A DNA stretch of 64,000 bases from Candidatus Hydrogenedentota bacterium (GTDB lineage Bacteria; Hydrogenedentota; Hydrogenedentia; Hydrogenedentales; SLHB01), in the NCBI GenBank assembly GCA_963668025.2, contig CAXXTH010000018.1:513763-577762 (forward strand). Reading direction: 5' to 3'. A model generated the notes under the pieces. It was given only the letters and a program-made list of their open reading frames with translations, was not told the DNA's origin and did not search any database. Of this stretch, positions 41,251 to 62,632 are shown in pieces. Position 1 is the first letter of the stretch, and every line of letters begins with the position of its first letter. Both the position numbers and the translations under genes were made by a program.

Positions 41251-41851
<601 letters not shown>

Positions 41852-45255: not shown

Positions 45256-47265
45256 GTGGCTCATCTTCAGGGTTGGTGTATCTGCTCGCTTCTTATCCTC
45301 TCTCTTTTTCCTGCGCAAGCTCAGGAAGCTGCACCCGTTAACAGAGCTGCATATACGGCCCGGCTGGCGCAAGACCTTTCTGCGGGTTATCTGCATATGA
45401 ATGATAAAGAGGGCGCACTTTCCTTCAAAGCACTTCCTCCCGATTATCCCTCGGATGCCGCAACCGGCGCGATTTCCATCGGCGAAGCCAAAAACGATTT
45501 CATCGGTTACGCTTGTGACAAGAATACCCAGCACGTATGGATTGACATCAATCGCAACCTGGACCTCACTGATGATCCATCCGTTCACGTTTGCCCAGTG
45601 GAAACGGAATATATAAACCATCACTATGCAGACGTTGAGTTTGATATGCCCGGCGAACCTGCCCGGCGATACAGGATGGATATTCGATTAAATTCATTGG
45701 CTAAAACCAGTTTTACGGTCATATCTGGCTGGGAGGGTTTCGTCGAGCTGCCGACAGGGAAGTATCCCATCAGCATAACCGATAATCTGAATGGAAACAT
45801 TGATTCTGGTGACGCCGTGATGATCGGGTATCGAGGGGCCGAAACAGTAGAGAGTTATAGGCCAGGAGGCATCTGCGCGGCAGGCAATCCCAGCCACTTA
45901 TTCATTGACGGGAAAAACTACGCAATAACCTACCGGTTTGAACCGGGTGCTGCCGGTGTAGACTTGCTGGCGGAATTCCATGAAACCTCTTCTCCCATGC
46001 TGGAAGCCATCGTGGCGGGCCGACATATCGACCGGATGGTGTTGGTTGGAAATCAAGGAACGTTATTTCTCGACTATCCCAGCGCAACCATAGCGGTTCC
46101 CGCAGGTTCATATACGCTCACGAGAATCATCTTGAATGCAGGCAAGGAAGATTGGAAATTCGAAAGCGCTCCCGGCCATCGGTATGTCTTTGAAGCGGGC
46201 AAGCCCGTTATCATCGAAGAAGGCGCGCCGCTCAGCAACTCGCTGGACTTGCATAAAGGTGTATTCGTTGTTTCCACCAGCTACAAGCTCCGCGACAAGA
46301 CGGGTGCAACGTATGAGCCCGTTTCGCCATTTGATCTACCGCGTCCCCAGTTACTTGTGCTCAAAGGCGGCAAGCAGATTTTATCCACCAATTTTGAGTA
46401 TGGGTGAGGGGGCACATGTTCGTACTCATGGCGAGTACCTCTGGCCGCATACGGCGAATATGAATTCGCATCGGAGTGTGATATTGGTTGTCTGGGCGAC
46501 AAAGAAGGCCTTCGCCAAACCTTGCACATAACGCCGGTAGGAACGATGATTCATATATTGCCAGTCCTGCTACTGCTCATGTTGTTTCTATTGCCCCGTA
46601 ACCGGAACCGGCATGTGTTGTGGGTGTTAGCATCATGTTTGGTGTCTGGTTTTATTATATATGCGTTTTACTCTATTACAGCCGACCCGGCGAATGGCAT
46701 AAAGAGTATTGCCATTGGTTTCTTGTTTTATATGTATGGCCTGTGCGCTGCATGGTTATTGTCTGGCAAAGATCGCATAAAAGCACGCGCGGTAAATTTA
46801 CTTTTTACCATGGCGAAACTATATGTATCTAGCGGTATTGCTGTGTTTGCATTCTGGGGTTTTTCTATGAATTTCTTTCTCTACCTAGTAGCGGAAGGGA
46901 TCGTGGCAGGGAGCATGTTTGTCGCATTGCTTCTTACGGGTGCCTGTAACTCAAAAGCATGTATAGCTAGACGTGTTATATACTGGCTGGCATTTTGGAT
47001 CATAATATTATCTTTGTTTTTAGGCATATTCTTTGGCACTATGGAAGCAAGATCGCCGTCAGAGGAGAGCGATATTTTCTTGAAGGTGCTTGCTTCGTAT
47101 ACGCTTATGGGAGTGGTCTTGTACATCCAGACGTTCCCGTTCATCGCCTTGGCCTTATGGGAGCCGCATTTCAAACAGCGTTTCAGCAGCGTATATCCCT
47201 TCCCGCCAGAACCGGAGGATACACCGCTGGAAGTAGAGCCACCTGCTCCTACCGTAAACAGATAA
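45256..47265 (+). CDS. Predicted selenoprotein A1: exported domain, FEYG-U-GGTC, C-terminal multi-pass membrane domain (~669 aa)
   Basis: ORFs 45250-46407 and 46522-47265 are in one frame, separated only by TGA 46405-46407. Readthrough gives GGTCSYSWRVPLAAYGEYEFASECDIGCLG. SECIS-like hairpin follows. Confidence 0.82.
46422..46438 (+). promoter_or_regulatory. Candidate bacterial SECIS
   Basis: GTACTC-ATGGC-GAGTAC beginning 15 nt after the TGA. Confidence 0.75.
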
Positions 47266-47331
47266 GGTGTTTTGCAAACCAAAAGGCATCAAAACAGGCG
47301 AAAGAAAACAAGGAATCCGTTTCGCTTGTAT

Positions 47332-48099
47332 TCACTTCGCCGCGATGCGCGCCGCGCCGAGTGCGCCCGTGTATTGCGGATACATGGCCACTTGAATCGG
47401 CAGGGCCAGGGCGCGTTCGAGGGCTTTCGCCATACCCGGCACGAGCGCGCCGCCGCCGGTGAACGCTACGGGAGCAACAGGATCGCGGCCCGCCATGGCC
47501 TTGATGCGTGCGGCGATGCTGTGTTGCACACCCGCGCAAATATCCTCACGCGGCACGCCCGACGCCAGCAGGCCGATGATCTCTGTTTCGGCGAATACGA
47601 CGCACATGCTGCTGATGGCGGCGGGCTGTGCGCCACGGCTGGCGAGTTCGCCCAGCGCATCGAGCCGGACGCCCATGCGGGTGGCCACCACTTCGAGAAA
47701 ACGGCCCGTGCCCGCCGCGCAGCGGTCGTTCATCACAAAATCGTTCACCGTTCCTCCGCCGTTCAATCGAATGATTTTGCTGTCCTGTCCGCCCAAATCG
47801 ATGACCGTGCGGGCCTCGGGCATGAGCCAATACACCCCGGCGGCGTGGCAAGTGATCTCCGTCACCGTGGCGTCCGCGAAGCCGATCAACTGGCGGCCGT
47901 AACCGGTCGCCACGATACGGTGGACCGCTTCCCGTGTTAAGCCCGCTTCTTTCAACAGGCGCTCGAACAGGGAATCGGCAAGCGCCTCCTGCTCGACGCC
48001 TTGGTCCACCATGCCGAAGCGCAATAGGGACTGTTGTGTCGCGTCATATAGCGCCACTTTAATCGCCCGCGACCCGGCGTCAATTCCCGCAGTAATCAT
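47332..48099 (-). CDS. ATP-dependent activase (HgdC / BcrAD / BadFG ASKHA family)
   Basis: GIDAGS, ATGYGR, TEITCH, IDLGGQDSK, MNDRCAAGTGRFLE, SMCVVFAETE, FTGGGA. Confidence 0.93.
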   Translation of the reverse strand: MITAGIDAGSRAIKVALYDATQQSLLRFGMVDQGVEQEALADSLFERLLKEAGLTREAVHRIVATGYGRQLIGFADATVTEITCHAAGVYWLMPEARTVIDLGGQDSKIIRLNGGGTVNDFVMNDRCAAGTGRFLEVVATRMGVRLDALGELASRGAQPAAISSMCVVFAETEIIGLLASGVPREDICAGVQHSIAARIKAMAGRDPVAPVAFTGGGALVPGMAKALERALALPIQVAMYPQYTGALGAARIAAK

Positions 48100-49480
48100 G
48101 TTGGACTCCTTTGTTCTCCCGGCGCATATAGATGGCCTCCACCAATGCCTGCAATCGGGTGCGTAGCGACGGCCCCATGGCGTCGCTCACCGGCGGCGCT
48201 TCCAGTTCCACTACAGGCAATCCCAGCCGCTCCCGGACCTGCTGGGCGATGGCTTCGCCCTCGAAAGCGCAGTGGCTGGCTCCGGGAATGCGGGAAACCA
48301 CCACCCCTTCCGCGCGAAACCGGACGCAATCGGCGCATACGCGCACGGCGCGGTCTTCAGCGGAACCGGCCATCGGGTCCGCCAAGGCCGCACGCGTCAA
48401 GGCTTCCATGGGCGGAATATCCTCGGGCAGCGGGTCCAAGGCGTGGCTGAACATGAAATCCGTCCCAGCCAGCCGTGCGCCGCAGTCCTCGAATAGGTTC
48501 ATCATGCGCAGATCCGCCACGGGATTCACCCAGAACACGCGCGCGGCATCACTCGGCGCGACTCCCTCCTTATTCTCGACGCGGGTACACGCCAATGCCA
48601 GCATATCTTCCAAAACCGCCAGGCTCTCGGTGCGGTCGGAACAAAAATGAATCGCCAGCATCTCAGCGATGAGCATTTCCAGCGCCGGTATGGGGGCGGA
48701 AGACGTGGAATATGCGAGCTGGCGGAGTTCGCGCAGGGCCGCTCGCACCCGGTTGGCCTGCCGGACGCCGTCGCACAACGCTTCATCCGTTAGTGTGTGG
48801 CCCGCCAGCTCTTCGAAGGCGGCCCGCAACCGCTCCAGTTCTCCACGCACAAAGGCCACTTGCGCCGCTGGCGCGATGCATCCACCGGGCAATTCCACCG
48901 CCGGTTCGCCTGGCTCGGGAGTGCGGCGGTGGGGCATTTCCCACCACAGGATGGGGTAGCCAAGGCCGTTCAGCCGCTGGGCAATGGCGGAGAAGTCGTC
49001 GCATGTGGCCCCTACGCTGCACGTGAGCAGATCGGGGATCGGGAAATGGGCTTCGGTCAAAAATGCGCCCAGCATGGCGCGCACGGGACAGAAGGATTCG
49101 CCGACGCCCAGCGAATCGGCGATGGCCAGCAGGCCGGTATTCAACTCCATCACGCAGGGGATCCACCACGCCCCATCGGGATAAAACGCCACCAGTTCAG
49201 GAAAAGCATACGCCAGCACGGGAACCGTGCCCAGATCTTTCATGGTTCCTACGATTTTTTTACCGGATGCCCGGGCCGCGTGGAGTCGGTCTTCCTCCGT
49301 GAGCAGGAAATTCCACAGCCGGAACGCGGCGGGGCTGTCATCGTAGAGCAAGCGTTCAAGGCGGAGATCGCCATCTTCGTCGACATGGCGGCGGAGCGGG
49401 CCATGGTAAGACACGCGGCTTTCGCTTGCCGCATAATGTGCGTCCATGGCATCAAGAGATATTTTCGGCACGATGGTCAT
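48080..49480 (-). CDS. 2-hydroxyacyl-CoA dehydratase (HAD) family subunit, divergent
   Basis: FCPVRAMLG, GATCDDF, GASHCAFE, LRTRLQAL.E. Start MTIVPK overlaps the upstream stop (ATGA). Confidence 0.78.
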   Translation of the reverse strand: MTIVPKISLDAMDAHYAASESRVSYHGPLRRHVDEDGDLRLERLLYDDSPAAFRLWNFLLTEEDRLHAARASGKKIVGTMKDLGTVPVLAYAFPELVAFYPDGAWWIPCVMELNTGLLAIADSLGVGESFCPVRAMLGAFLTEAHFPIPDLLTCSVGATCDDFSAIAQRLNGLGYPILWWEMPHRRTPEPGEPAVELPGGCIAPAAQVAFVRGELERLRAAFEELAGHTLTDEALCDGVRQANRVRAALRELRQLAYSTSSAPIPALEMLIAEMLAIHFCSDRTESLAVLEDMLALACTRVENKEGVAPSDAARVFWVNPVADLRMMNLFEDCGARLAGTDFMFSHALDPLPEDIPPMEALTRAALADPMAGSAEDRAVRVCADCVRFRAEGVVVSRIPGASHCAFEGEAIAQQVRERLGLPVVELEAPPVSDAMGPSLRTRLQALVEAIYMRRENKGVQHDYCGN

Positions 49481-50460
49481 CGCAAGGCCTCTAGGAATGA
49501 CTCGAGCCGCGTGGCGGTGCGCGGTGTGACGCCCTCGTCGTCGGCATCCACCGCCACCACCGGCAGCGTGGTCCATTCCCGCAAGCGGGCTTCTTCCGCC
49601 GCCCACGTGTCGCACCACAAACGCCGGATGAACACGACGCCCCGCACGCCGCGCGCGGCGAACTCCCGTTGCAGCCATTGATAGAGCAGCGTGTTGGGCC
49701 GCCGAAATGCATCGGGAATGCCGCTGAAGTAGGCTCCGGCCAGTTCACCAAAAGGATCGTCGTGTAGCGCCCGCCGGTCAAACGGGGCAGGCCAAGTACG
49801 TTCGCCGTTACCTGTTGCGTCGAGTACGAGGCGTCCGCCCCGCGCCTCGATGAAGTCAAATAAGTCCCAAAACCGTTCCGGCAATTCGGGGCCTACGACA
49901 GCCACCGGTATGCCTTGGCCACAATCAGGGATTCCTGGAAAGGCGGGCAGCGCCGTGTTCGGATCTGACTGGCATTTGCGGAGCGCCGACGCGAATACAC
50001 GGGCGGGCATCCAGGGGCGTGCATCGCGCAGACGCCGCCGGACGGTGTCATAGGCGTTCATCACTTCCGCGAGACTGGCGTTGCTGGGCCTTTCACCACC
50101 CAGCCGACACAGGAATCCTCCTAGACGCGCCAGTTCGCTTGCATACAACCGGTGCGCACTGGACGTCTGCCATGTGGCGGGCGCGTGCAGCAGGAAAACC
50201 GGATACGAGCACTCCCGCGCGGCCATCTCTGCGGCGCGGCGCATCTGGTCGCATGCCGTAGTGAAGACAGCGCCTTGGACGGGCGCTTCGCGCAAGGCAT
50301 GGACATACGCGCCCGCGTAGGCGCATACGCCCATGGGCATGGGCGCGGGAGGCTGCAAAATCGGCAGCCGCACGGAGCACACGCCATGGGCGCACAGCCA
50401 TTCCGGCGGCACGAATGGGCTGTCGCATGCCACGGCCAGCTTGGGTTCAAGGAGCGTCAT
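49477..50460 (-). CDS. HAD family subunit (short)
   Basis: SPFVPPEW, GVCAYA, TTACDQMRR, WCDTW, TRLESFLE. Confidence 0.78.
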   Translation of the reverse strand: MTLLEPKLAVACDSPFVPPEWLCAHGVCSVRLPILQPPAPMPMGVCAYAGAYVHALREAPVQGAVFTTACDQMRRAAEMAARECSYPVFLLHAPATWQTSSAHRLYASELARLGGFLCRLGGERPSNASLAEVMNAYDTVRRRLRDARPWMPARVFASALRKCQSDPNTALPAFPGIPDCGQGIPVAVVGPELPERFWDLFDFIEARGGRLVLDATGNGERTWPAPFDRRALHDDPFGELAGAYFSGIPDAFRRPNTLLYQWLQREFAARGVRGVVFIRRLWCDTWAAEEARLREWTTLPVVAVDADDEGVTPRTATRLESFLEALR

Positions 50461-50466
50461 GCCAGG

Positions 50467-51702
50467 CTACGCCCTCGCCTTGGCCGTCTCGAACAGCGCC
50501 TCGACGCGCACGGCGATGCGGGCGGAATCGGACGGCGAATAATCGGTTTCGAGACGCAGATAGGGCAGCCCCAGTTCCTCGATGGCGAACCGCCGCACGT
50601 GGAACGACTCGACATCGTAAGTGAGGCAGGCCTGCCAGACCAGTTCGATGATGCAATCGGGTCGGTATTCCGCCGCCAGCCGCCGCAGGCTCTCGATGCG
50701 GTCCGTGTTGGGCGTCATGACCGAGCAGGGCAGGTGGTAGTATTTAGCGGCCAGGGCGCGCAGCGGGTCGGGCGCGTATTCGTCTACATCCTCAATGATG
50801 GGCTTCACTCCGGTGCAGTTTTCCATGCAGACCACCAGCCCGCCGCTGGCTTCGATGATATCCAGGACGCGCTCCGCGCCATGGGGCATGGGCACGCCAG
50901 TCAAGAGCACGCGCGTGCGCTGGCCTGGATCAGACGGATCGGACAGATCGGACGGATCATGGTAATATGCGATGGCGCGCTCGTATTGGGCGAAGTCGGC
51001 TTCGAGGCCGGAGATGCTGCTCTTGAAAGCCAGCAATTCGTGGCTCGTGAACGGTGGTTCAGCGCGTTGCATCAGGGCGGCAAGTTCGCGGCGCAAGGCG
51101 CGTTCGCGGTTCATCACGCAGATAGCCGCGCGCAACGCATCGTCGGTGATGGCGCGGCCATAGCGCGCCTCGAGAAACGCCAGGAACGCGCGCAACTGGT
51201 TTTCCCAATAATCGAGGGCCTCGGGCCGCCCTTGTTTCTGGGGCAACTCGAGGATGTACATCTCCTTGCGGGCGGCCATCAGTTCATACATTTTCTTCTT
51301 CGCGTCGCAGGTCGTTTCCGCCACCACCAGGTCCGCCATTTCGAGGAACGGATTCGACTGCCGCGCGAAATAGCCATAGGTGGATTTCACCAGCGGGCAC
51401 AGGTTGGCGGGCAGGTGTTCCTCCGCCGCCGGGATGGTGGCCGCCGAACCGCCGCACAGGCAGACGGGCACGGCCCCCGCCGCCATAAGTAATTCGCGCG
51501 GGGTGTATTCACACATAATGCCCACGATGGGACGTCCCGCCGCCTGCTGTTCCCGCGCATACGCCAGGCAGTTCTCGATCATGCGCCCGAAATGGGCCTG
51601 GAACGCATGGGCGGCTGGCGCGGCCTTGCCACACGCCGGGGCCGCTGACACACAGGGATCCCCCGGCGTGATATGCACATCGCCTCCATAACACTTGCTC
51701 AT
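50467..51702 (-). CDS. Double-cubane-cluster anaerobic reductase-like protein (HAD family)
   Basis: GIMCEYTPREL, VCLCG, LPANLCPLVKSTYG, ETTCDAKKKMYE, ENCTG, LPCSVM, QACLTY, ETDYS. Confidence 0.85.
   Translation of the reverse strand: MSKCYGGDVHITPGDPCVSAAPACGKAAPAAHAFQAHFGRMIENCLAYAREQQAAGRPIVGIMCEYTPRELLMAAGAVPVCLCGGSAATIPAAEEHLPANLCPLVKSTYGYFARQSNPFLEMADLVVAETTCDAKKKMYELMAARKEMYILELPQKQGRPEALDYWENQLRAFLAFLEARYGRAITDDALRAAICVMNRERALRRELAALMQRAEPPFTSHELLAFKSSISGLEADFAQYERAIAYYHDPSDLSDPSDPGQRTRVLLTGVPMPHGAERVLDIIEASGGLVVCMENCTGVKPIIEDVDEYAPDPLRALAAKYYHLPCSVMTPNTDRIESLRRLAAEYRPDCIIELVWQACLTYDVESFHVRRFAIEELGLPYLRLETDYSPSDSARIAVRVEALFETAKARA
50927..50958 (-). repeat. In-frame 9-bp tandem repeat (DPSDLSDPSDP)
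   Basis: GATCCGTCC GATCTGTCC GATCCGTCT GATCC inside the reductase CDS. Confidence 0.7.
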
Positions 51703-51710
51703 GATACCCC

Positions 51711-52508
51711 CTATGATTTTTGGGCGACAATAAGCCCTTGAATAATTTTGCCTTGTTCCGCCAACTCACGCATGAACACCATCTCACCGCCCATGGCCTG
51801 CATCAGTTCCAGGTCGAATCCGATGCATCTGAGTGCGTCATAAGTAAGCTGCCGGGTAAGCATGTCGATATACAACGCCACACAAGGAGCAAAGCGGCCT
51901 GTATCTGCTGCATGCTTCACCGTACAGCCTGCCCCTTCGAGCAGCGCCGCATACCTGTCCAGCGTGAACACATTGGGGAATTTCATGAAGGCGCGGAATC
52001 GGGCGTCTTCCTCGGGCGTGAGGCCAGCCGGCCCCGCCAGCCAGTCCGTGAACGCAACAATCCCGCCAGGCTTCACCAAACGCACGGCCTCGGCGATGAG
52101 CTGGGGCTTGTCCTCGACATAACACCAGGCATCTTCACCCCACACGAAATCGGCCTCGCTCGATGGCAGGCCGCTGGCGCATACATCCGCCAGCGTGAAG
52201 GTGATGCGGTCCGCCAGCCCCTCGGCATTGCACCGGCCACGCCCGAGCTCGACTACATGCTCGGTGGCGTCTACGCCCTGCATGGCCGCGATGTCGCGAA
52301 AACGCACGAGGAAACGCATGCCAGCGCCGGTGCAACAGCATAAATCGATGCCGCGCATCCCGGGTTTAAAACCCGCCTTATCCGCAAGGTCCATGGACGA
52401 TTGGAAACCCCCAATATGGACCTGCTCCCCCATGACCAATTCCCATAAATCGCCCTCGGGGCCGCCATACACGGCCTGGACATCTTCGAGATGATATTCT
52501 TTCATCAT
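51711..52508 (-). CDS. Class I SAM-dependent methyltransferase
   Basis: HIGG, IDLCCCTGAG motif I, GVDAT, FVWGEDAWCYV, LVKPGG. Confidence 0.88.
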   Translation of the reverse strand: MMKEYHLEDVQAVYGGPEGDLWELVMGEQVHIGGFQSSMDLADKAGFKPGMRGIDLCCCTGAGMRFLVRFRDIAAMQGVDATEHVVELGRGRCNAEGLADRITFTLADVCASGLPSSEADFVWGEDAWCYVEDKPQLIAEAVRLVKPGGIVAFTDWLAGPAGLTPEEDARFRAFMKFPNVFTLDRYAALLEGAGCTVKHAADTGRFAPCVALYIDMLTRQLTYDALRCIGFDLELMQAMGGEMVFMRELAEQGKIIQGLIVAQKS

Positions 52509-52634
52509 ATACTACCTCCCAAATCATCTGCTTTTTGAGTCTCTTGAGCTTTTTGTGGCAAAAGAAAACCCTTCGCCAGTTCTTCAGAACCGGCGAAGGG
52601 CAAATCGCGTTTGGGCATGGAACGCCCGTATGCG

Positions 52635-54098
52635 CTAGAAGCTGATCGTCTGGACCTCCATCTTGCTATCCCAGGGGCCAGGTGTAAATGTACATAAGAC
52701 TTTATAGCTCTTGCCTTTCTGAGGGCCACTCCATGTGGCCGAGCAACTGAAGCCTCACCCATACTCGAATTGGCCTTGGGCCACGACCTCGCCGTCATCC
52801 GTCACAATCTTGTACGTGGGCTCTTTGGGCCGTGAATTATTCGTCGCGGACATAGGGATCGCATCGCCCGAACCTGCCACACGATCCAGCCTGTTCACGG
52901 CTTCTTTGCCTTTACCCATCATCGTGAAATTGAGCCGCACTCCATCCGAATGGCCTGAAGCAAAATTCTCTTTATCCCATTGATACACAAATACCGCAGG
53001 CGAATAGGGCTCACCGAAAACGGTTTTGACCGTTTCACCCGCCTTCGCCGTCCATATCGGTGTTTCATTCGTAGCCATCGCACCCATGCGCCAGGTATCG
53101 CCCTTCTTATCTTTCTTCACGGACTGGTACATGGCCACCATGTAGTCGCCGGGGGGAACGAGCACTTTGCTGGTAACGCCATACGCCATAACACCGTCCT
53201 TGGTGGCGTTCGCGGCAGCAAGCTGGACCATCGTGGCTTCCTGCCCGAGCTTCACCGTAGCCAGCGGCTCCGGCGTAGGTTCGAGGGTCATTTTCTTCGC
53301 GGGAATATCAACCGCCACCGTATACAGCGCGCCATCCAGGTACAAGTATTTGCCCATGGGGCACGTATCGTAATAATCAAGCTGTTCCTTGTCACTTAAT
53401 ACAAACAAATCGGCTCGTATATACAGAGGCTGATACGGCATATCCCGGTTCATTTCCGACATCTTCGCCTTATCCATAGGCTCCGCTAAATCCGAGAAAT
53501 TACCGTTCCCATTGCCGTCGCCCAGCATAATGCGATACGTCTTGGCATTCAGCTCGAATGTCCCCTTGTAAGCGCATGCTGTCCGGCAGATAAGCTGGAC
53601 CCTTTGAATAACGAGCTTTCCATTCTCGTCCTGTATTTGCATGGGATACGCCTGGAAAGCGAGCCTATACGGCGTATTGTTCCCACCTACGGGAATGGTT
53701 AGATCAAAAGGCTCCCAGTTCGAATAGTCGGTGCTGAACTCACTTGCCGTTGCCCACGCCTCTTCGGCCAGATCGCCATCGCCGTCCATATCGAAGAGCA
53801 GCTTGTCGTAGAAGCCATCCTCTTTCGACGGTTCAAGCACGACCAAGCGTTTTACACCGCCTAGCTCGATAATGGTATAGAGCTGCTTAGCGCCTGTGAA
53901 CTCCGGCAGTTTCCACTCGCCGGGCGGGATTTCCGGCTTGGCTTCGTCGCCCCTTCCACCACCAGGGATGAATGTCCTGTTGTCGTTCGATTGGGTGACA
54001 TACTCGAGGGGAACCTCGATAGCCGCCGCCATGGCCGCCATCGAAAAAATCCACGCGCATGCCATAAATATTGTGATGCCTCGTATTCTCACCATCAT
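52635..54098 (-). CDS. Predicted selenoprotein B: secreted, C-terminal FEYG-U-GFSC
   Basis: Apparent stop TGA 52755-52757. Readthrough adds U+GFSCSATWSGPQKGKSYKVLCTFTPGPWDSKMEVQTISF up to TAG 52635. Signal peptide; DxDGDGD motifs. Confidence 0.8.
52724..52740 (-). promoter_or_regulatory. Candidate bacterial SECIS
   Basis: GGCCAC-ATGGA-GTGGCC beginning 15 nt after the TGA. Confidence 0.75.
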
Positions 54099-54130
54099 TT
54101 AGATCCTCCTGCAAGTTAACCTCCATACGC

Positions 54131-54155
54131 GCATGGGCGGGACGCCCATGCTACG
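54131..54155 (-). repeat. GTAG-type REP palindrome
   Basis: GTAGCATGGGCGTCCCGCCCATGC. Confidence 0.75.
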
Positions 54156-54162
54156 TGCGTAT

Positions 54163-56175
54163 TTACTCCAGTGTAGCCTCCAGGGGTGGAGGGGTAGTTT
54201 CTATTGCCGGTGCATGCTCCGGCTCCAGCGGGAAGGGAAACACGCTGTAGAATCGCTGCTTGAAGTGGGAATCCCAAAGCGCCATGGCGATGAATGGCAG
54301 CGCCAGGACGTACAAAATCACCCCTATAAATGTGCATACACCAAGCACCATCAGGAAAATATCGCTCTCCCCTGATGTTATCGCAGCCACAGCGCCAAAC
54401 AGTATGCCCACCAACAAAACCGTTGCTATGCTCCAAAAGGCCAGCCAGCATACGACTCGTGTAGCGGTGCATGTTTTTAAGCAACAGACGCCGGTAAGAA
54501 GCAACGCAATGAATAAAATCCCTACGGCGATCCCTTCCATCACAAGGTATATAAAGAAATAGGAGGCGCCGCCTCCGTAAGCAAACAGGGCGATGCAGCC
54601 AAACACATATGCTTTCGCCATGGTGAAAAACAGGTTCACCGCGCGCGCCTTTATACGGTCTTTGCCAGATAATAACCACGCAGCGCATAAGCCATACATA
54701 TGGGAAAGCAAAAACACAACGGACAGTGTCACGGCAATATTCGCCCGTTCGGGCGAAATAGAGCAACATGCATATCCGGCCAAAGCCGCCACTACCGCTA
54801 TCGCTAGAATCCTCAACACATGGCGGTTGCGGTTGCGCGGCAGTAGAAACAGCACAAGCAATAGCAGGAACGGCAATAAACGAATCACGGCTCCTGTAGG
54901 TGCAATGTAATAGGTTTGGCGCGGGCCTTCTTTGTCGCCCAAACAGCCAATATCACACGCGCAAGCGAATTCGTATTTACCAAATGCGGCCAGAGGTACT
55001 CGCCATGAGTACGAACAGGTGCCCCCTCACCCATACTCGAAATTGGCGGAAGAAATCTGCTTGCCGCCTTTGTACACCACAAAAGATGGACGCGAACGCT
55101 TTGTGGATGAAGCAGGTTCATATTCCGCGCCGGTCTTGTCACAGAGTTTGTATCCGGCAGTAACCGCGAACACGCCTTTACACAGTTCAAGCGTGTTGTT
55201 CAGTGGCGCGCCTTCCGCGATGGCGACAGGCTTGCCCGCTTCAAAAACATACGAGCGAGAAGGAGAACTCTCGAACATCAATTCTTCTTTGCCGGCATTC
55301 AAGAGTATTTTCGTGAACGTAAATGAACCTGCGGGAACGGCCACGGTTCCACTGGGATGATCGAGAAACACCGTTCCTTGCTCTCCAACGAACACCATTC
55401 GTTCAATATACTGTCCCTCCACGGCGGCTTCCGCCATGGTCACGGGCGCTTCACGAAATTCCACTATCAAATCCGCGCCGGTAGCGCCCGGCTCGAAGCG
55501 GTAGGCAATCGTGTAATGCTTCCCGTCAACGAACAACTGGCTGGGATCGCCTGCCGCGCAGATGCCTTGTTGCTCATGATTCGCCAGTTTCTCCGCACCG
55601 CGAAACCCGAGCAGCACGGCGTCGCTGGAACCAATGGTTCCATTCAAATCATCGGTTACGCCAAGGGGATAGCGCCCGGTCGGCAGGTCGACAAAACCGG
55701 TCCAACCGGAGGTAATCGTCATTCGGGTCATGCCAACAGGATATATTTGAATATCCATCTTGTAATGCCGGGCGGGCTCACCCGGCATATCGAATGCTAC
55801 ACCTCGATAGGTGATGCCATAGTCGTTTTCCATATTGTCTATAAGGACCGGCGGATCATCGGCGAGATCCAGGTTGCGGTTCGCATCAATCCATATGCGC
55901 TGGGAGTTCTTGTCATAGGCGAAACCGATGAAATCGCCTTTGGCTTCGCCGATGGAAATCGCGCCGGTTGCGGCATTCGCGGGATAATCGGGGGGCAGTG
56001 TTTTAAAAGTGACCGTACCCCCTTTCTCTCCCATAGAAAGATTGCCTGCGGACATGTCTTGCGACAGCCGAGCCGTATAGACGGCTCCATCAACGGGAAC
56101 AGCTTCCTGGGCCTGCGCAGGAAAAAGAGAGAGGAAAAGAAATGAGCAGACACACCAATTCTGAAGACGAGCCAT
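54163..56175 (-). CDS. Predicted selenoprotein A2 (paralog of A1, ~670 aa)
   Basis: ORFs 55027-56175 and 54163-54942 are in frame across TGA 55027-55029: FEYG-U-GGTCSYSWRVPLAAFGKYEFACACDIGCLG. Confidence 0.82.
54996..55012 (-). promoter_or_regulatory. Candidate bacterial SECIS
   Basis: GTACTC-ATGGC-GAGTAC beginning 15 nt after the TGA, identical to the A1 hairpin. Confidence 0.75.
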
Positions 56176-56378: not shown

Positions 56379-57854
56379 ATGACACGAAAAGCGGCCGTTA
56401 TTGCGATTGCGGTATTTTTTACACTCGGATTTCCTTGTTACGCGGAATTAGCGCCCATTGCCATCGAGTCTGGCATACAGGCGTATCAAGTCATTCAATG
56501 CGATGCGCATGGCCTGGCTGAGGTGAACTGTGCGGGCAGGGTGGATGCTGTTGCATCCGGCACTGTCGAGACCCGAGTCCTTTCCAAAAAACACAAGGTG
56601 AAACCCTGGTCGGCCGTCGGCACGGTGTCCGATTCAAAGTGGAATGCACACATCGCTGGTCTGCCCGTGGGCGGACCCTATGCCATCGAATTTCGCGCCA
56701 AGGACGACACCGGTAAAACGCGCGCGGAAACTGTCGTTCAGGAAGTATTGGTGGGGGATCTATGGATACTGGCCGGGCAGTCCAATATGGAAGGATATGC
56801 AGATCTGGTTCATACCGCGGAACCTTCTCGACAGGTGCATGCGTTCTATATGAACGATACCTGGCAAATCGCCAAAGAGCCGCTTCATGACTTATGGTCT
56901 TCCTGCGATCACGTCCATAATAGCGTAAGCGGTGAAAAGTCACCGGCAAAGGGGGCGGGATTGGGGCTGCCCTTCGCCTTGGAGATGGCCCGCCGCACGG
57001 GCCGCCCGGTGGGGCTTATCCCCTGTGCGCATGGCAATACTTCCATGACGCAGTGGAATCCGGAATTGAAGGAGCCATATGGCGACTCGTTATACGGTTC
57101 GATGTATCGGCGGTTTCTGGCAGTGGGCGGGCATATTCGCGGCGTCTTGTGGCATCAGGGCGAATCGGAAACGTTGTCCGATGAAGATGTCGCCGCATAC
57201 CCCCAACGGTTGAGCAGCCTTGTTCGAGCGATACGCACGGATTTCGCGTCGCCCGATTTGCCCTTCTACTATGTGCAGATTGGGCGCACGGTGCATTTTG
57301 CACCGATAGAACCACGGCGCTGGAACGCCATTCAGCAGGCCCAACTGGATGCGGAAAAGCTCATCCCCCATGTTGGAATGACTGCCAGTATAGATTTGCC
57401 GCTAGATGACTTTGTGCATGTGAGCACGGATGGGCACAAAGTGCTTGGGCAGCGATTGGCTGCGCTTGTTTGCCGGGATTTATTTGGCGAGGCATCCATC
57501 CAGGGAGGCCCGCGTTTCTCCCAGATGGAGATGGTCAAGACGCCTTATGCTCTCGAGCTTCACGTCCGGCTTCAAGGAGTCAACGGCAAACTGCAAGCGG
57601 CGGGGCGCGTGTCAGGCTTCAGCCTGAGCGATGCGGAAGGGCGTGACCTCCCCATGATCGTCGAGCAGAGCCTATCAGATGAGGAGCCAGCGACTGTGAT
57701 CCTGCGCCTCACGACGCCGCTGGGAGGCTGCCCGGAGCAGGTGTACCTGTGGTATGGGCACGGGCTGAATCCGTACTGCAATGTAGTGGATAGCCAGAAT
57801 CTAGCATTGCCGGTATTTGGGCCTGTGCCGGTGCTGGAACGCATTCCGTTCTAG
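56379..57854 (+). CDS. Sialate O-acetylesterase (SASA / SGNH) family, secreted
   Basis: GDLWILAGQSNMEG, PVGLIPCAHG, WHQGESE, DFVH. Confidence 0.88.
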   Translation: MTRKAAVIAIAVFFTLGFPCYAELAPIAIESGIQAYQVIQCDAHGLAEVNCAGRVDAVASGTVETRVLSKKHKVKPWSAVGTVSDSKWNAHIAGLPVGGPYAIEFRAKDDTGKTRAETVVQEVLVGDLWILAGQSNMEGYADLVHTAEPSRQVHAFYMNDTWQIAKEPLHDLWSSCDHVHNSVSGEKSPAKGAGLGLPFALEMARRTGRPVGLIPCAHGNTSMTQWNPELKEPYGDSLYGSMYRRFLAVGGHIRGVLWHQGESETLSDEDVAAYPQRLSSLVRAIRTDFASPDLPFYYVQIGRTVHFAPIEPRRWNAIQQAQLDAEKLIPHVGMTASIDLPLDDFVHVSTDGHKVLGQRLAALVCRDLFGEASIQGGPRFSQMEMVKTPYALELHVRLQGVNGKLQAAGRVSGFSLSDAEGRDLPMIVEQSLSDEEPATVILRLTTPLGGCPEQVYLWYGHGLNPYCNVVDSQNLALPVFGPVPVLERIPF

Positions 57855-57885: not shown

Positions 57886-58671
57886 TTAGCCAGTGGCGTT
57901 CTCCGAATCCTTATGGGGGCATGCCTTTTGGCAATCGTGGCAGACGATGCATTCGAGAGCGCGGCTCGGGGGCACGCCTTGGGCCATGTGTTTCGACGGG
58001 ATCCCATTGGCGGGGCAATACTTGTCGCAACGGTGGCATTCCTGGCATTTCGCGATAGGCTTCACGGTCCAGAAACTCACCAGATTGAGCGGGCCGAGAA
58101 TGGCCCCTATCGGGCAAAACACTTTGCAGAAGGAGCGGCTGCTGGCCATGGCCAGCAGCAATACGACGGCGAGCACGCCCAGTTTGATCCAGGAGCCCGC
58201 GTCCAGTCCAGCGATTCCCGCGCTGGCAACGTTCGGCAGGGTGACTTCGATGGCGGACGCGGGGCAATAACGGCAGAACGAGAAAACGGTGGATTCGCCA
58301 AAGAGTGCAGGGAGCAGGAGCACAAATAGGACCAGCACGGCGTACTTAATGTATCCCGTCCAATTCGGCAAAATGTATTTGCGTCCTGGGATCTTATAGA
58401 GCAAATCCTGTATGAATCCAAATGGGCACACCCACCCGCATAGCAGCCGTCCGAAAACTACTCCGAGCGCCAGCACAGTTCCTACGGCCAGAAAGGGAAA
58501 AGCCCAATAGGCCGCATAATGGACAAATACGCCGATGGGACAGGCGAACCAAGACAGCGGACAGGAATGGCAAGTAAGCACGGGATTACACAGCCATTTC
58601 GCGTCCAATCCCCACGAACAATGGAGCATCACCAGCGCCGAAATCTGAACCCACCACCGCCGCAACATCAC
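57886..58671 (-). CDS. Membrane 4Fe-4S binding protein (NapH/YccM-like polyferredoxin)
   Basis: CHSCP...CPIG, GRLLCGWVCPFG, FCRYCP, FCKVFCPIG, CxxCxxCxxxCP twice. Confidence 0.9.
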   Translation of the reverse strand: MMLRRWWVQISALVMLHCSWGLDAKWLCNPVLTCHSCPLSWFACPIGVFVHYAAYWAFPFLAVGTVLALGVVFGRLLCGWVCPFGFIQDLLYKIPGRKYILPNWTGYIKYAVLVLFVLLLPALFGESTVFSFCRYCPASAIEVTLPNVASAGIAGLDAGSWIKLGVLAVVLLLAMASSRSFCKVFCPIGAILGPLNLVSFWTVKPIAKCQECHRCDKYCPANGIPSKHMAQGVPPSRALECIVCHDCQKACPHKDSENATG

Positions 58672-58739: not shown

Positions 58740-59009
58740 TCACTTTCAAGTGGGGCAGGAGCGCTTGCCCCTCGGGGCTGAGCGGTCGTAGGTGGAATAC
58801 AGTTTGCCGTCTTTTCTCACTACCCCGGTGAATGTGGCGTCGATGGTGAGCTGCCAATCCGGGATGCGCTCGAAAGTGATGAGGCCGAATTCCTGGCCCA
58901 TTTCGTCCTGTTCGTAGACCTTGCGCGAATAGACCGCGCCCGTGGCGATGCAGGCAACTGCTATCGCGAGCAACACGCCCGCCACCGTTTTCTGAATCAT
59001 GCCATGCAT
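58740..59009 (-). CDS. Small membrane-anchored protein, predicted C-terminal CxxU (SCPT-U-K)
   Basis: N-terminal TM helix; ends TGC CCC ACT TGA AAG TGA; lies between selB and the polyferredoxin. Confidence 0.68.
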
Positions 59010-59012: not shown

Positions 59013-60998
59013 CTAAAGCAGGTTCCTTTCATATTGGTACGCCAGCATGCGAAGGTTCTCCCGCCGTATGGTGACGCGCCGTTTGTCCAGATAATCCAGA
59101 ATCGCGATGGCGTATTTCCGCGTGGACTCTATCCTATACTTAAAATCCGCCGAATCCAGTTTTCCGTCCCGCTGGATGGCTTCCACGGCGATAGTCTGCG
59201 CACGTTGCATGGCAGAATAGCTCAGCACCACGTTTTTAGCAAGCCGGATCAGCAGCCCCTCGGCGCAGGCGAGCTGCAACAGCTTTTCGATGTGAGCCTC
59301 CGACGCACCGAGTAGTTCTGGCAATTCATCCGGGCGGGGCGATTGGAAGGCGTTTTCTTCATACACCGTCAAAATACGTTCGAGCAGCGCGCGGTCGTCC
59401 TCGGGCAATCGTTCCAATGCGCCGCGCAGCACCATACGCCCCGTGCGCGACGCCGTTGCTCCTTGCTGTTTGAGCCCTGCTTGGGCCTTGCGCCAGAAGG
59501 GCGCGGGCCATCCTAATTCCTGCTGCAACGCCGCAGTGTTAAGCTCGATGGCCCCGCCTTGTTCAAGGCGTTCCTTGAGCAACGCCACGCCTTCCTGGAA
59601 ACGGCCCGCATCCGCGTAGTGGCCGTCCTCGAGTGCGAGGAGTTCGCCGGACGCCGCCAAGATATCGAGCCGGGCGCGCGCCGTTTCAATGGGCAGATAA
59701 GCGGCTCGCGCGGCGGTTTCGAGGGATGCGCTAGGCGCATCCGCCGTGTGAAAGAAATGGCGCAGGCGTCGGCGCTGTCCCTCTTCCGAGAACGGCTCCG
59801 CATCGCCAAGGGCCTCCGCACACGCCACCAGTTCATCCAACGCTTGTTTCTTGCGAGGGCGGTTCGCGCCCGCGTAAATGGCCCATATATCGCCCCCAGC
59901 CACTGTAGTCGCAGGCGATATGCGCCGCAGGATGAAGCGGTCATGCGGAACCACTGCTATAGGTTCGCTCAAGGCCAGCACCGCCCAGCACGGCTCGCTT
60001 TCGCGCGCCTGTTCTTGGTCGAGGAGATACACCTTGCCCGGCTGCTCGCTCGTGCCGGTATGCAGCCGGACTTGCTCGGCGTTCCGCAGCGGCGTATCGA
60101 TTCCCGCCGCCGCACGCAAGCGCACGCCAAAAAAGGAGGCCGCCTGCAAATAGCCCGGTGCGGCGATGGACTGCCCACGCTCGGGGGGCGTCTTGCCGAA
60201 CTCGGGTACGTTGAGGGCGAGGCATTGTCCGCTGGCCCCCTCTTCCGCTTGCCGCAAGAAACACTGGATGCCCCGGATATGCCCCCGCTGGCCGCCGGGG
60301 GCCAATTCGACTTCATCGCCCACGCGCACCTGGCCGGATAACGGAATGCCGGTGGCGACGGCCCCGAATCCTTTGCGCAGAAAGACGCGCTCGATAGGCA
60401 TGCGGAAGATCCCCGCGCGGCGGGTTTGTTCGGCGGCGCGGATGGCGGACACGAGGGTTTCGTAGAAAGGCCAGAATCCTTCACCCGTCTCGGAAGACAC
60501 GGGGCAAATGGGCGCGCCGTCGAGGAACGTGCCCGCGGTGAAGACACGCAGATCCTCGATCACCTCGGCCACCCGTTCCGGCGTCACGAGGTCGATCTTC
60601 GTAAGCGCGATGATGCCGCGCCGCACGCCGAGAAGATCCATTATCTGGAAATGCTCGATGGTCTGCGGCATGATGCCGTCATCGGCGGCGACCACGAGGA
60701 TCGTAAGATCGATGCCCGAAACGCCCGCCACCATGTTGCGGATGAATTTTTCGTGGCCGGGCACGTCGACGATGCCTACGCATAGTTTGCCGCCCAGACA
60801 ACAGGGCGCGAAACCGAGTTCGATGGTCAGCCCGCGCTCCTGCTCGATCTTAAGGCGATCCGTGTTACAGCCCGTAAGCATCTTCACGAGCCGGGTCTTG
60901 CCATGGTCCACGTGCCCCGCCGTGCATACCATCATGAGCACGTCGGGCTCGACCTCGCGCCGGAGGAGTCCCGGCGGCGATGCGGCATGGGTGGCCAC
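59013..60998 (-). CDS. selB: Selenocysteine-specific elongation factor
   Basis: TAGHVDHGKT, EQERGLTIELGF, DVPGHEKF, LTKID, C-terminal STRKYAIAILDYLD winged helix. Confidence 0.95.
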   Translation of the reverse strand: MATHAASPPGLLRREVEPDVLMMVCTAGHVDHGKTRLVKMLTGCNTDRLKIEQERGLTIELGFAPCCLGGKLCVGIVDVPGHEKFIRNMVAGVSGIDLTILVVAADDGIMPQTIEHFQIMDLLGVRRGIIALTKIDLVTPERVAEVIEDLRVFTAGTFLDGAPICPVSSETGEGFWPFYETLVSAIRAAEQTRRAGIFRMPIERVFLRKGFGAVATGIPLSGQVRVGDEVELAPGGQRGHIRGIQCFLRQAEEGASGQCLALNVPEFGKTPPERGQSIAAPGYLQAASFFGVRLRAAAGIDTPLRNAEQVRLHTGTSEQPGKVYLLDQEQARESEPCWAVLALSEPIAVVPHDRFILRRISPATTVAGGDIWAIYAGANRPRKKQALDELVACAEALGDAEPFSEEGQRRRLRHFFHTADAPSASLETAARAAYLPIETARARLDILAASGELLALEDGHYADAGRFQEGVALLKERLEQGGAIELNTAALQQELGWPAPFWRKAQAGLKQQGATASRTGRMVLRGALERLPEDDRALLERILTVYEENAFQSPRPDELPELLGASEAHIEKLLQLACAEGLLIRLAKNVVLSYSAMQRAQTIAVEAIQRDGKLDSADFKYRIESTRKYAIAILDYLDKRRVTIRRENLRMLAYQYERNLL

Positions 60999-61001: not shown

Positions 61002-61386
61002 CTAGAGCCCCACTTCCTGGCAAACTTCCTTATAGAACATCATGGCGGTGCAGCCGCCGAAGGCCACGGCCAGCCGCGCCGTTTCGTCGATTTCGTCTTT
61101 CGATATGCCCATCTGAACGGCCCCTTGCAGATGGATCTTCAGGCAAGGGTGGCAGTGATGCGCAATGGATAGCAGAATGGCCATCAGCTTCTTGTGTTTC
61201 GCATCAATCAGCCCCGGCGCGTTGGCTTCTTTCATGAAAGCTTTGAATGATTCAAACGGGTCCATATTCGGATCTCCTTGTATGGGCGGGGTCTTCACCG
61301 GCGTGATGTCCGGCGGTTCACAGCAACAGGCCGCGTCTTCAACGGGCGCTGCTATCTCAATCGGCTTGTCTTTCAGGCGGTTCATA
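61002..61386 (-). CDS. Carboxymuconolactone decarboxylase / AhpD-like domain (possibly the C-terminus of SelD)
   Basis: KHKKLMAILLSIAHHCHPCLKIH..GA...G...DEI.E, FGGC; preceded by a CCC linker. Confidence 0.75.
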
Positions 61387-62632
61387 TCCACCGTCGCTGG
61401 CTCGCCCACGAACCGGCCCAGGGGCGGCGTTGGTAACGATGACCCGGCCTTCAGTCTGCCCGGGCGCTTTCTCCACAATCCGCCCGATAGCCGCCGCCGC
61501 AGTATGCCCGCGCATCTTCATATCATCCAGAAACGCTTCCGCTTGCGCGGGCGGCAAGGCGATGAGCAATCCGCCGGAAGTTTGCGGATCAAACAGCACC
61601 GGCAAACCGCCCTGGCCCGCGCCTTCGGTGATGTCGATCCAGCTCATGGCGTACGCCTGGTTGCGGTCCACCGCCCCGCCGAACACCTCGTGCGCAAGGC
61701 AGGCCGATGCGGATGCGAGCACGGGAATGGCGGACATATCGATTTCGGCGTTGACGCCGCTGCCGCGCACCATGGACACAAGATGGCCCGCCAAGCCGAA
61801 TCCGGTCACATCGGTGCAGGCATGCGCGCCGTGGCGCAGCATCAGTTCGGATGCGTCGCGATTGAGGGCCGCCATCCACTCTCCCGCTTCATTCAGCGCC
61901 GCCTCGTCTATCACGCCCAATTGGGCCGCGAAGGACACGATGCCCGTGCCCAGCGGCTTGGTGAGGACAAGGACATCGCCGGGCTGGGCGCAGTCGCGCG
62001 CGATGGGCTGGCGGGGGGTCGATGACGCCCGTGACCGCGAAACCACATTTGATCTCTTCGTCGTTGATGCTGTGGCCGCCGATGAGGGCGCAGTTGGCTT
62101 CTTCGAGGGTTTCCATGCCGCCCAGCAGCATCTCGCGCAGAATACCTCCATCCAGCGTCTCGATGGGGAATCCCACGATCGACAGCGCCGTGATGGGCCG
62201 CCCACCCATGGCGTAGACATCGCTTACGGAATTGGCGGCGGCGATGCGCCCGAACAGGCGGGCGTCATTGACGCATGGTGTGAACACATCGACCGTCTGC
62301 ACCAGCGCCGTCCGCTCATCCAACCGGTAGACGCCCGCATCGTCGCCCGCCGCTGCGCCCAGCAGCACATTCGGGTCCGTGGGCAGCGGAAGGCCGCTGA
62401 GCAATTGTTGCAAGTCGGCCTGCCCGATCTTGGACGCGCACCCGGCCTTGCGGACATATTGGGTCAACGCGGCGCGGCCAGTCTTCACGGAAATACGTTC
62501 ACCCGCACACGGGCATACATTCTGTTCGATGAGCGGCGGGCACGGGCACGGATGCTTAGGATTGCAGATGCAATGCCCCAGCTTGCGCGAACGCTCCATC
62601 ACCGCCCGGCGTCGTTCGAGATCAATGGCCAA
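61357..62632 (-). CDS. selD: Selenide, water dikinase with Cys-rich N-terminal extension (frameshift near 62015)
   Basis: KAGCASK, GDDAGVY, QTVDVFTP, AANSVSDVYAMGG, GGHS, LTKPLGTG, TDVTGFGLAGH, DPQTSGGLL. One extra C in a homopolymer. Confidence 0.9.

Follow-up and report, generated by a model that had tools for sequence, protein, structure and literature searches.

The window analyzed here, the last 64 kb (64,000 nucleotides) of contig CAXXTH010000018.1 in assembly GCA_963668025.2 of a Candidatus Hydrogenedentota bacterium, carries genes for three candidate selenocysteine (Sec) proteins (A1, A2, and B), for Sec synthesis and insertion (selA, selB, and selD), and for an ATP-driven reductase set: a double-cubane cluster protein (DCCP), two divergent HGD-D proteins (HADlong and HADshort), an activase, and a Cys-rich methyltransferase (MT). 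We read these genes as a conserved, patchily distributed "selenocysteine island" whose reductase acts on selenium species, and we put the probability of this overall reading at about 0.4. The parts of the reading differ in strength: that the island is one functional unit appears highly probable, and selenium as the substrate of the reductase is a tentative proposal that we rate as less likely than not.

Across genomes, the reductase follows the Sec trait. Among 135 genomes of the window's phylum and 301 genomes sampled from a second order, around a Phycisphaerales chromosome, we found HADlong in 13 and 60 genomes, SelD in 29 and 77, the Sec-containing domain (Sec domain) in 20 and 84, and DCCP in 20 and 61, respectively. 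In the window's phylum, SelD and the Sec domain were each present in 11 of the 13 HADlong genomes, and the sole HADlong genome with neither has only a gene fragment; DCCP and the Sec domain occurred together in 19 genomes, with one genome each way carrying one of them alone. In the second order, SelD was present in 56 of 60 HADlong genomes, versus 21 of 241 genomes without HADlong, and in 49 of these 56 the two genes were no more than 3 kb apart; the Sec domain was present in 57 of 60 HADlong, 60 of 61 DCCP, and 73 of 77 SelD genomes. The first-pass annotation of this DNA had tied the reductase to selenium, a link that these counts support: the MT-DCCP-HADshort-HADlong-activase cassette is not widespread in genomes lacking selenoproteins and sel genes, because SelD, the Sec domain, or both are present in 12 of 13 HADlong genomes of the window's phylum and in 59 of 60 of the second order. 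The reductase is nested within the Sec trait: it is found almost only where Sec proteins are.

Gene order shows the same association. One-genome-per-species contigs yielded 301 confirmed HADlong relatives, and the loci of the best 80 were analyzed; these span at least six phyla and include Planctomycetota (Phycisphaerae, Sedimentisphaerales, and Pirellulales), Verrucomicrobiota, Victivallales, Armatimonadota, Sumerlaeota, Hydrogenedentes, and a few others. The order MT, DCCP, HADshort, HADlong, activase is kept nearly everywhere, and all five cassette genes are present in 55 of the 80 loci, most of the rest being short contigs. A SelD-CMD fusion is encoded directly downstream of the activase gene in 38 of the 62 loci that have at least 1.8 kb of DNA there; overall, most loci have SelD downstream and others have it upstream, and in the window it is some 13 kb distant. 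Of the 42 loci with 3 kb or more of DNA upstream of the cassette, 27 have a same-strand Sec-domain gene no farther than 6.5 kb upstream, and in 21 the distance is at most 1.5 kb. A DUF3034 protein is encoded in the interval from the Sec gene to the MT gene in 21 loci. Clustering of the open reading frames (ORFs) of these loci identified SelA, SelB, and a NapH-like ferredoxin as recurrent partners; ORF clusters 13 and 16 were dropped as spurious since they overlap the NapH-like and SelD genes on another frame or strand. With a narrower Sec motif, a sel gene or Sec-domain gene was found in 44 of the 52 loci of at least 12 kb. The cassette is modular. As for variant arrangements, DCCP precedes MT in L019, L024, L032, L054, and L069, MT is missing from L048 and L049, and DCCP is missing beside the HAD pair in L058 and L059.

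Smaller islands separate a core from an add-on. We examined four of the genomes of the window's phylum with the Sec domain and without HADlong; they encode a DCCP that is 60 to 66% identical to the window's and adjoins Sec-protein genes, in the order selC-selA-selD-selB-napH-like-[Sec proteins]-DCCP, with an activase gene after DCCP in one of the four. Because islands without MT and the HAD pair keep them, Sec proteins, DCCP, and sel genes constitute the core, along with the activase (seen in one of the four minimal islands). MT and the HAD pair had been taken for integral parts of the system; they are instead an add-on, missing from the minimal islands.

A1, A2, and B, first noticed for their FEYG-U motif, hold up as real selenoprotein candidates, given covariation in a Sec insertion sequence (SECIS) hairpin and a TGA codon in every whole-genome homologue match. 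They contain the only FEYG-U-G sites in the 6.1-Mb assembly. A1 consists of a putative signal peptide, a beta-rich exported part, a G-U-GGTC loop, and a multi-pass C-terminal anchor; the N termini of A- and B-type proteins alike are read as putative signal peptides. A1 and A2 are 63% identical, and their likeness extends over 287 residues past the UGA, which is hard to explain unless the UGA is read. The loop G-U-x3-C is invariant in the family; the B version, G-U-GFSC, sits in a C-terminal immunoglobulin (Ig)-like domain. Sixty-one sites with the same motif occur in 39 of the 80 related loci, all with TGA and none with Cys, and TGA was likewise found in every Sec-domain match of the whole-genome searches (54 of 54, 24 of 24, and the 150 matches listed of 358). 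The SECIS candidate is an 8-pair hairpin with the consensus GGUACUCG-UGG-CGAGUACC, located 17 to 35 nucleotides (nt) from the U of the UGA. In an alignment of 63 sequences, 93.4% of cells are paired and changes on both sides are seen at 6 of the 8 pairs; none of 500 shuffles paired as highly, and slid structures fell far below. Between the B stem and the A-type stem, both-side changes occur at three pairs. The motif hit in L074 looked unrelated and was excluded from the SECIS and domain alignments.

Neither A1, A2, and B nor three relatives from other loci matched any Pfam or NCBIfam model. AlphaFold2 predicts B to be an all-beta, multidomain protein (predicted local distance difference test, or pLDDT, 86.1; predicted template modeling score, or pTM, 0.86). 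Foldseek found nothing meaningful in the PDB for the whole B model (template modeling score, about 0.1) and no match at E = 0.001 or better for the C-terminal Sec domain alone, and VIA-align matched that domain only to a generic Ig/fibronectin type III (FN3)-like sandwich (best Z, 7.0; root mean square deviation, 2.2; 70 aligned), a fold match that is uninformative on function. Because an alignment of eight A-type proteins revealed no conserved Cys or His in the C-terminal membrane part of A2, we read this multi-pass part as an anchor; a protein atlas held no usable neighbor of the A2 membrane domain (best score, 0.77).

The Sec-domain family is large: its profile matched 1338 cluster representatives at E values up to 0.001. 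Among the best 150 of these, 96 end exactly one residue before the Sec position, at their own C terminus, as would be expected of truncated gene calls. Where representatives run through the Sec site, some have Gly, some Arg or nothing comparable, and some Cys; three of the Cys forms carry fused Redoxin/AhpC-TSA domains, suggesting thiol/selenol redox chemistry for the loop. Database proteins P0003, P0005, P0008, P0012, and P0038 have Gly at the Sec position, as if TGA had been decoded as Gly, and bins with Sec-domain genes may sometimes be mis-assigned a recoded genetic code. In addition, P0018 and P0011 are non-Sec relatives fused to a Ser/Thr protein kinase or a staphylococcal-nuclease domain; thus, the fold also serves as an extracellular module without the Sec/Cys pair. 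The Sec-domain family appears to be the main reason that its carriers keep the Sec trait, being present in 73 of the 77 SelD genomes of the second order; a formate dehydrogenase model had no match in the window's genome, where other selenoprotein families were not surveyed.

The first-pass annotation described one activase serving three divergent Fe-S subunits. One activase gene does accompany three HGD-D proteins, but these are not subunits of equal kind: DCCP is of the standard type, and the remaining pair is predicted to heterodimerize. The activase passes TIGR00241 (260.9 bits; cutoff, 125.4), and its Cys127 and Cys166, which we take to be the ligands bridging the [4Fe-4S] cluster of the dimer, are kept in 75 of 77 relatives. 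DCCP passes the curated model NF040772 (406 bits; cutoff, 350), and its residues 54 to 407 align to 7yyl_C (E = 7.7e-58; for 6eno_A, E = 1.3e-57). Each of seven DCCP Cys residues (64, 83, 102, 132, 296, 326, and 359) aligns to a Cys of 7yyl_C and is kept in 59 of 59 relatives; the literal Cys spacing pattern quoted by Haft and Gwadz was not matched.

HADlong (57 bits) and HADshort (45.7 bits) both fall short of the NF040772 cutoff. HADlong has six near-invariant Cys residues (109, 131, 154, 160, 280, and 404; 78 to 80 of 80 relatives) and HADshort has three (46, 70, and 283; 68 to 69 of 69 relatives). The closest solved relative of HADlong is DCCP (E = 5.4e-6), and HADshort has no solved relative below E = 0.1 (best E, 0.14). 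HADlong is 60 to 70% identical across the 80 loci, with a mean column identity of 74% in the alignment. We rejected HADlong as a further selenoprotein: the apparent in-frame TGA in many match rows is the true stop, read through. HADlong and HADshort are predicted to form a heterodimer with an interface score (ipSAE) of 0.90, versus 0.00 for the best control; 58 of the 80 complexes with solved structures attained the mark used, as did 2 of 110 mismatched pairs, a calibration that is only approximate here because our own alignments were used. Runs agree in at least 96% of contacts, with a partner pLDDT of at least 86, and the predicted interface takes in C46, C70, and C283 of HADshort and, from HADlong, C154, C160, and the segment that surrounds C404. 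Since solved HadBC or BzdNO relatives exist, the prediction may reflect likeness to them, not independent evidence. By analogy with the known enzymes compared below, we propose that HADlong is a double-cubane-type electron-storage subunit and HADshort a catalytic [4Fe-4S] subunit.

The best NCBIfam match of MT is the DVU_1556 family (48.1 bits; cutoff, 155); a search for literature on DVU_1556 and its neighbors returned nothing. Among proteins of solved structure, phosphoethanolamine N-methyltransferases come closest to MT (E = 2e-17), and sarcosine N-methyltransferases are also close. Conserved Cys residues are C57 to C59 and C129 (58 of 58 relatives) and C195 (57 of 58), the CCC replacing the glycines of motif I. 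MT scores below the cutoffs of the ArsM models NF008823 (26.4 of 263 bits) and NF040539 (28.8 of 240 bits).

Coordinates and translations bear out the minus-strand gene order described earlier, A2, B, MT, DCCP, HADshort, HADlong, activase (Table 1), and the motifs quoted with it (PDGAWWIPC, CCC, and FEYG-U-G) are all present in the window's translations. The tight junctions are likewise as reported: an 8-nt gap for MT-DCCP, a 6-nt gap for DCCP-HADshort, an ATGA overlap for HADshort-HADlong, and a 20-nt overlap for HADlong-activase. Wider gaps separate A2 from B (64 nt) and B from MT (126 nt), and A1, on the plus strand, is convergent with the activase gene. The proposal that the seven minus-strand genes form one operon is doubtful, because a conserved terminator-like hairpin splits B from MT. 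This hairpin is by far the strongest terminator-like site in a 15-kb scan: a 15-pair stem with 9 G-C pairs and a 4-nt loop, followed by TTTTCTTTT. The fold of the spacer (132 nt) has an energy of -48.5 kcal/mol (z, -3.65), and a good ribosome-binding site follows this spacer. Reading folds by eye, we found a hairpin plus T-run of the same type between the Sec-protein and MT genes in 10 of the 12 related loci in which these are adjacent; L059 and L074 lack it, and the Sec site of L074 is doubtful and was left out of the SECIS alignment. From these sequence features, the seven genes are probably not a single simple operon.

Table 1. Positions of the island's genes and RNA elements in the window
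Feature	Position	Strand	Basis
A1, membrane-anchored Sec protein, 671 aa	45250..47265	+	TGA 46405-46407; Sec-domain profile match with 1 TGA
SECIS hairpin of A1	46421..46439	+	Comparative alignment
Activase, HgdC/BcrAD-type, ATP-dependent, 255 aa	47332..48099	-	PF01869, E 6.8e-56
HADlong, divergent HGD-D protein, 466 aa	48080..49480	-	PF06050, E 2.2e-36
HADshort, divergent HGD-D protein, 327 aa	49477..50460	-	PF06050, E 1.1e-25
DCCP, double-cubane cluster protein, 411 aa	50467..51702	-	NF040772, 406 bits
MT, Cys-rich class I S-adenosylmethionine (SAM) methyltransferase, 265 aa	51711..52508	-	Methyltransf_11, E 5.6e-13
Terminator-like hairpin and T-run between B and MT	52568..52601	-	Predicted
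B, exported Sec protein, 487 aa	52635..54098	-	TGA 52755-52757
SECIS hairpin of B	52723..52741	-	Comparative alignment
A2, membrane-anchored Sec protein, 670 aa	54163..56175	-	TGA 55027-55029
SECIS hairpin of A2	54995..55013	-	Comparative alignment
NapH-like membrane ferredoxin, final gene in the sel operon	57886..58671	-	Fer4_5, E 8.1e-16
SelB, Sec-specific elongation factor (putative)	59013..60998	-	GTPase motifs and selA/selD synteny
SelD, with N-terminal Cys-rich and C-terminal AhpD/CMD domains	61002..62632	-	TIGR00476 in two pieces
SelA, reaches the contig end	63195..64000	-	TIGR00474, E 1.5e-38 over first part

In this assembly, SelD is spread over three frames (-1, -2, and -3) and SelA over two, with the SelA change near 63720-63724; one of the breaks falls on a run of six C. 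Public-run contigs lack one base at 62013, 61421, and 63723, which are the three break points, and show further one-base differences at 63450 and 63530. Because these independent contigs are without the extra bases, we attribute the breaks to assembly errors, not to decay; other genes of the assembly may carry the same homopolymer-type errors. An intact SelD homologue scores 364 bits against TIGR00476 (cutoff, 125) and contains AIRS, AIRS_C, and CMD. The SelD proteins of related loci have ∼535 to 545 residues, including an N-terminal Cys-rich segment that matched no Pfam model and an AhpD/CMD domain with CxxC; the AhpD domain is most similar to the AhpD domains of ArsM/AhpD selenoproteins (E = 2.9e-12). 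The GTPase motifs in its translation and its synteny with selA and selD suggest that the gene beside selD, which is intact, encodes SelB, and the tblastn relatives of this SelB adjoin SelD and SelA in related loci. The NapH-like protein scores 57.5 bits against TIGR02163, below the cutoff of 213, and has only Fer4_5 and ferredoxin motifs in common with it; its gene was found in 15 of the 52 related loci of at least 12 kb and, among five loci of genomes that lack the cassette, in four.

The locus is reproduced by independent public-run contigs, one of which spans 46421-55013 with zero differences from the window. Within the island, a SASA-family sialate O-acetylesterase gene (56379-57854) lies on the opposite strand between A2 and the sel operon, and outside it are two tandem BNR/sialidase-like genes (41980-44450); all are carbohydrate-degradation genes with no tblastn counterpart in the 80 related loci. 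An 87-residue ORF without a Pfam match (58746-59009, minus strand) sits between selB and the NapH-like gene. At Rfam gathering thresholds, the locus contains no RNA family apart from pieces of a group II intron at 41251-41766 (minus strand), where three matches to intron RNA domains score 144.2, 73.2, and 47 bits; this intron may have no protein of its own, since the adjoining ORF (40256-41146) encodes an esterase (BD-FAE) instead of a reverse transcriptase. Just downstream of selA, at 63090-63165, is a palindromic, CACAGAGA-rich element with arms of ∼30 nt. It has 22 short blastn matches in the assembly, on five contigs, and its public-run contigs show high depth and several alternative joints; it looks like a REP (repetitive extragenic palindromic)- or MITE (miniature inverted-repeat transposable element)-like repeat.

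We propose the following explanation for the island as a whole. It would have three parts: the Sec proteins, exported or membrane-anchored beta-sandwich proteins whose Sec would be read via the SECIS hairpin; selA, selB, a three-domain SelD, selC (in relatives), and the NapH-like membrane ferredoxin; and a cytoplasmic, ATP-driven, low-potential reductase set. An activase homodimer would hydrolyze ATP and drive electrons into two acceptors, a DCCP homodimer with one [8Fe-9S] cluster per subunit and a BzdNO-like heterodimer in which HADlong would store electrons and HADshort would reduce substrate at an open-site [4Fe-4S] cluster; the Cys-rich MT might work on the same thiophilic small molecule. 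At the cell surface, the Sec proteins could take up or process selenium species, with the NapH-like protein keeping the U-x3-C loop reduced; in the cytoplasm, selenium species would be reduced to selenide for SelD, and MT might methylate the excess. Selenium is our first guess for the substrate because SelD belongs to the same gene string, because the reductase is nested in the Sec trait, and because a co-occurrence of DCCP with SelD has been published: 955 of 970 high-scoring DCCPs are in SelD-containing assemblies (Haft and Gwadz, bioRxiv 10.1101/2022.07.06.499078; here and below, cited for the available part of its text). A more general version, in which DCCPs are ATP-driven selenium mobilizers for SelD, through reduction of refractory species to selenide or through a selenium-carrying cluster, and act together with a large family of obligately Sec-containing cell-surface proteins that would capture or handle this selenium, seems to us rather unlikely.

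Several observations weigh against the selenium-reducing island. DCCP is absent from 24 of the 84 Sec-domain genomes in the second order and from 1 of 20 in the window's phylum, and HADlong is absent from 9 of 20 in the latter; thus, the Sec-domain family does not need the reductase. Eight of the 52 long loci have no sel or Sec-domain gene in their flanks under the narrower motif, one of which, L073, has a Sec site under a looser pattern. All such counts overstate independence because the genomes are related. The conserved terminator-like hairpin favors separate or attenuated transcription. MT is without an obvious place in selenide supply, and its nearest solved relatives methylate nitrogen. 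Substrate hand-over is conjecture, since the reductase is intracellular and the Sec proteins are extracellular. Single-sequence folds of the 61 nt after each UGA were no better than shuffles (z, -0.54, 0.49, and -0.38); they gave no signal, and the SECIS hairpin is supported by the comparative count only. Finally, no tRNA-Sec was found in this assembly, which is 93.75% complete; the SelA gene of the window is cut by the contig end, selC adjoins selA in two relatives, and tRNA-Sec was found in 12 of 26 related loci scanned.

Other substrates would fit parts of these data. The first-pass annotation favored metal(loid) or organometallic chemistry. In such a reading, the cassette would reduce and methylate a thiophilic metal(loid) other than selenium, or an organometallic compound (of As, Sb, Te, or Hg), and the Sec proteins would be periplasmic high-affinity binders. 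Thiol-dependent metalloid methyltransferases have conserved Cys residues, and MT has five near-invariant ones. MT also weakly matches ArsM-type NCBIfam models, the AhpD domain of SelD is closest to those of ArsM/AhpD selenoproteins, and soft-metal chelation by the U-x3-C loop is possible. Organometallic chemistry has been put forward for a different selenoprotein locus linked to DCCP (Haft and Gwadz, 10.1101/2022.07.06.499078). Against this reading, the ArsM scores are far below their cutoffs (26.4 of 263 bits), the closest solved relatives of MT are N-methyltransferases, the conserved neighbor clusters include no ars, mer, or efflux gene, MT is missing from the minimal islands, and the place of SelD in the cassette operon, beyond the Sec proteins, would go unexplained. 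We regard these substrates as quite unlikely. A substrate that is organic and selenium free has similarly poor prospects; the sel linkage would then result from a co-moving island or from a partner step that needs a selenoprotein. Horizontal transfer as a block would fit the patchy distribution (13 of 135 and 60 of 301 genomes) and the 60 to 70% HADlong identity across phyla, the terminator-like hairpin would divide the transcription units, and known heterodimeric members of the family act on coenzyme A (CoA) thioesters (PMC11971306, likewise cited for its available part). However, the SelD link persists through rearrangement (downstream, upstream, or about 13 kb off), DCCP remains beside Sec-protein genes with or without the MT and HAD genes, and the conserved clusters and scanned window ORFs contain no CoA ligase, CoA transferase, or acyl-CoA dehydrogenase. 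The lack of the last two had been noted at the outset, and it holds for the 20 window ORFs (36440-62632) scanned with Pfam.

Selenium might also be a building block of the enzyme, with SelD supplying selenophosphate for a selenium-bridged or selenium-containing double cubane in DCCP or HADlong, which Haft and Gwadz call a "formal possibility" (10.1101/2022.07.06.499078). The position of SelD, which immediately follows the activase in 38 of 62 loci and is no more than 3 kb from HADlong in 49 of 56 genomes, the 955 of 970 DCCPs in SelD-positive assemblies, and the nesting of DCCP and the cassette within the Sec trait would all agree with such a cluster. The conserved neighbors, however, include no SelU-like or YqeB/YqeC-like selenium transferase; the same SelD fusion, being the genome's only SelD, must also serve Sec synthesis; and the clusters of solved DCCP and BzdN structures were modelled with sulfur (PMC11971306). 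We consider a selenium-containing cofactor very unlikely.

Whichever substrate applies, the island turns a DCCP-SelD link that was previously a statistical co-occurrence into physical, cross-phylum gene linkage, with SelD in one gene string with DCCP, a BzdNO-like enzyme, and the activase. It also brings to light a large, uncatalogued selenoprotein family, whose members are mostly truncated by gene callers where the Sec codon stands (96 among the best 150), and it offers a defined gene set for anaerobic biochemistry, a short list of candidate substrates, and a concrete way of testing how the reductase relates to selenium. If DCCP does mobilize selenium, this would be an overlooked selenium-acquisition pathway in Planctomycetota, Hydrogenedentota, Verrucomicrobiota, and neighboring phyla.

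Already known are the enzyme families, a statistical link of DCCP to selenium, and SAO, a selenoprotein locus with associated DCCPs. In the literature searched, which did not cover supplementary files, we found neither the Sec-domain family, nor its near one-to-one pairing with DCCP, nor a SelD-containing cassette with a BzdNO-like pair and MT. The available part of a 2026 selenoproteome review has no U-x3-C family, no Planctomycetes, and no double-cubane proteins, and that of the BSepDB paper makes no mention of these phyla, the U-x3-C motif, or double-cubane proteins. Among SelD fusion forms, the core of the window-type SelD is a full equivalog (364 bits; cutoff, 125), and the oxidoreductase/SelD-related fusion model TIGR04369 is not reached (142.7 bits; cutoff, 700).

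In anaerobes, the SAO locus brings together NF040772 DCCPs, an activase, and several genes for selenoproteins, of which some are exported (10.1101/2022.07.06.499078), and the joint presence of multiple selenoproteins, DCCP, and activase makes it similar to the island. The two differ in their selenoproteins, which are Ig-like with U-x3-C in the window and, in the available SAO text, MerB-like enzymes and ABC-transporter parts with CU motifs. The Sao families (SaoL, SaoB, SaoP, SaoT, and related) had no match among the 20 window and locus proteins scanned against NCBIfam. The hosts differ as well: ours are Hydrogenedentota, Planctomycetota, and neighbors, which the available SAO text does not mention.

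Input of very-low-potential electrons to Fe-S clusters, driven by ATP, is established for DCCP/DCCP-R and benzoyl-CoA reductase, while the physiological role of DCCP is "still unclear" (PMC11971306). With the Carboxydothermus hydrogenoformans DCCP/DCCP-R system (6ENO and 7YYL), the island shares an NF040772 protein, the seven Cys residues, and an HgdC-type ATPase in the gene string. Unlike that system, the window's DCCP sits among genes whose products are exported selenoproteins, joined in most relatives by a SelD gene, and its activase gene is shared with a second, heterodimeric HGD-D enzyme and MT.

The 2-hydroxyacyl-CoA dehydratases HgdAB/HgdC and HadBC/HadI resemble the reductase set in their Pfam families (HGD-D and BcrAD_BadFG), their one-ATPase design, and their alpha/beta heterodimer. 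In contrast to their loci, the scanned ORFs and conserved clusters contain no CoA-transferase or 2-hydroxyacid dehydrogenase genes, and no dehydratase equivalog cutoff is attained: the HadC model matches DCCP only (53.3 of 700 bits), with no match for HADlong or HADshort. Dehydratase subunits have lost the double cubane (PMC11971306), whereas HADlong keeps six Cys residues.

For the HAD pair, the likeness is to BzdNO, a benzoyl-CoA reductase of class I (8S02), in which BzdN binds an [8Fe-9S] cluster via six Cys residues and BzdO a catalytic [4Fe-4S]-OH2 cluster via three, an ATP-dependent module feeding this active-site dimer (PMC11971306): the predicted HADlong/HADshort heterodimer has the same six-plus-three pattern of invariant Cys. 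Sequence similarity of HADlong to this group is marginal (TIGR03190, 16 of 453.8 bits; TIGR02263, 16.1 of 421.15 bits; BzdN, E = 0.0058), and compared with BzdN, HADlong has an additional N-terminal region of about 100 residues. The settings differ too: no aromatic-degradation or CoA-ester genes lie near the window's cassette, and a single activase gene stands here where BzdNO/BcrBC systems have two ATPase genes.

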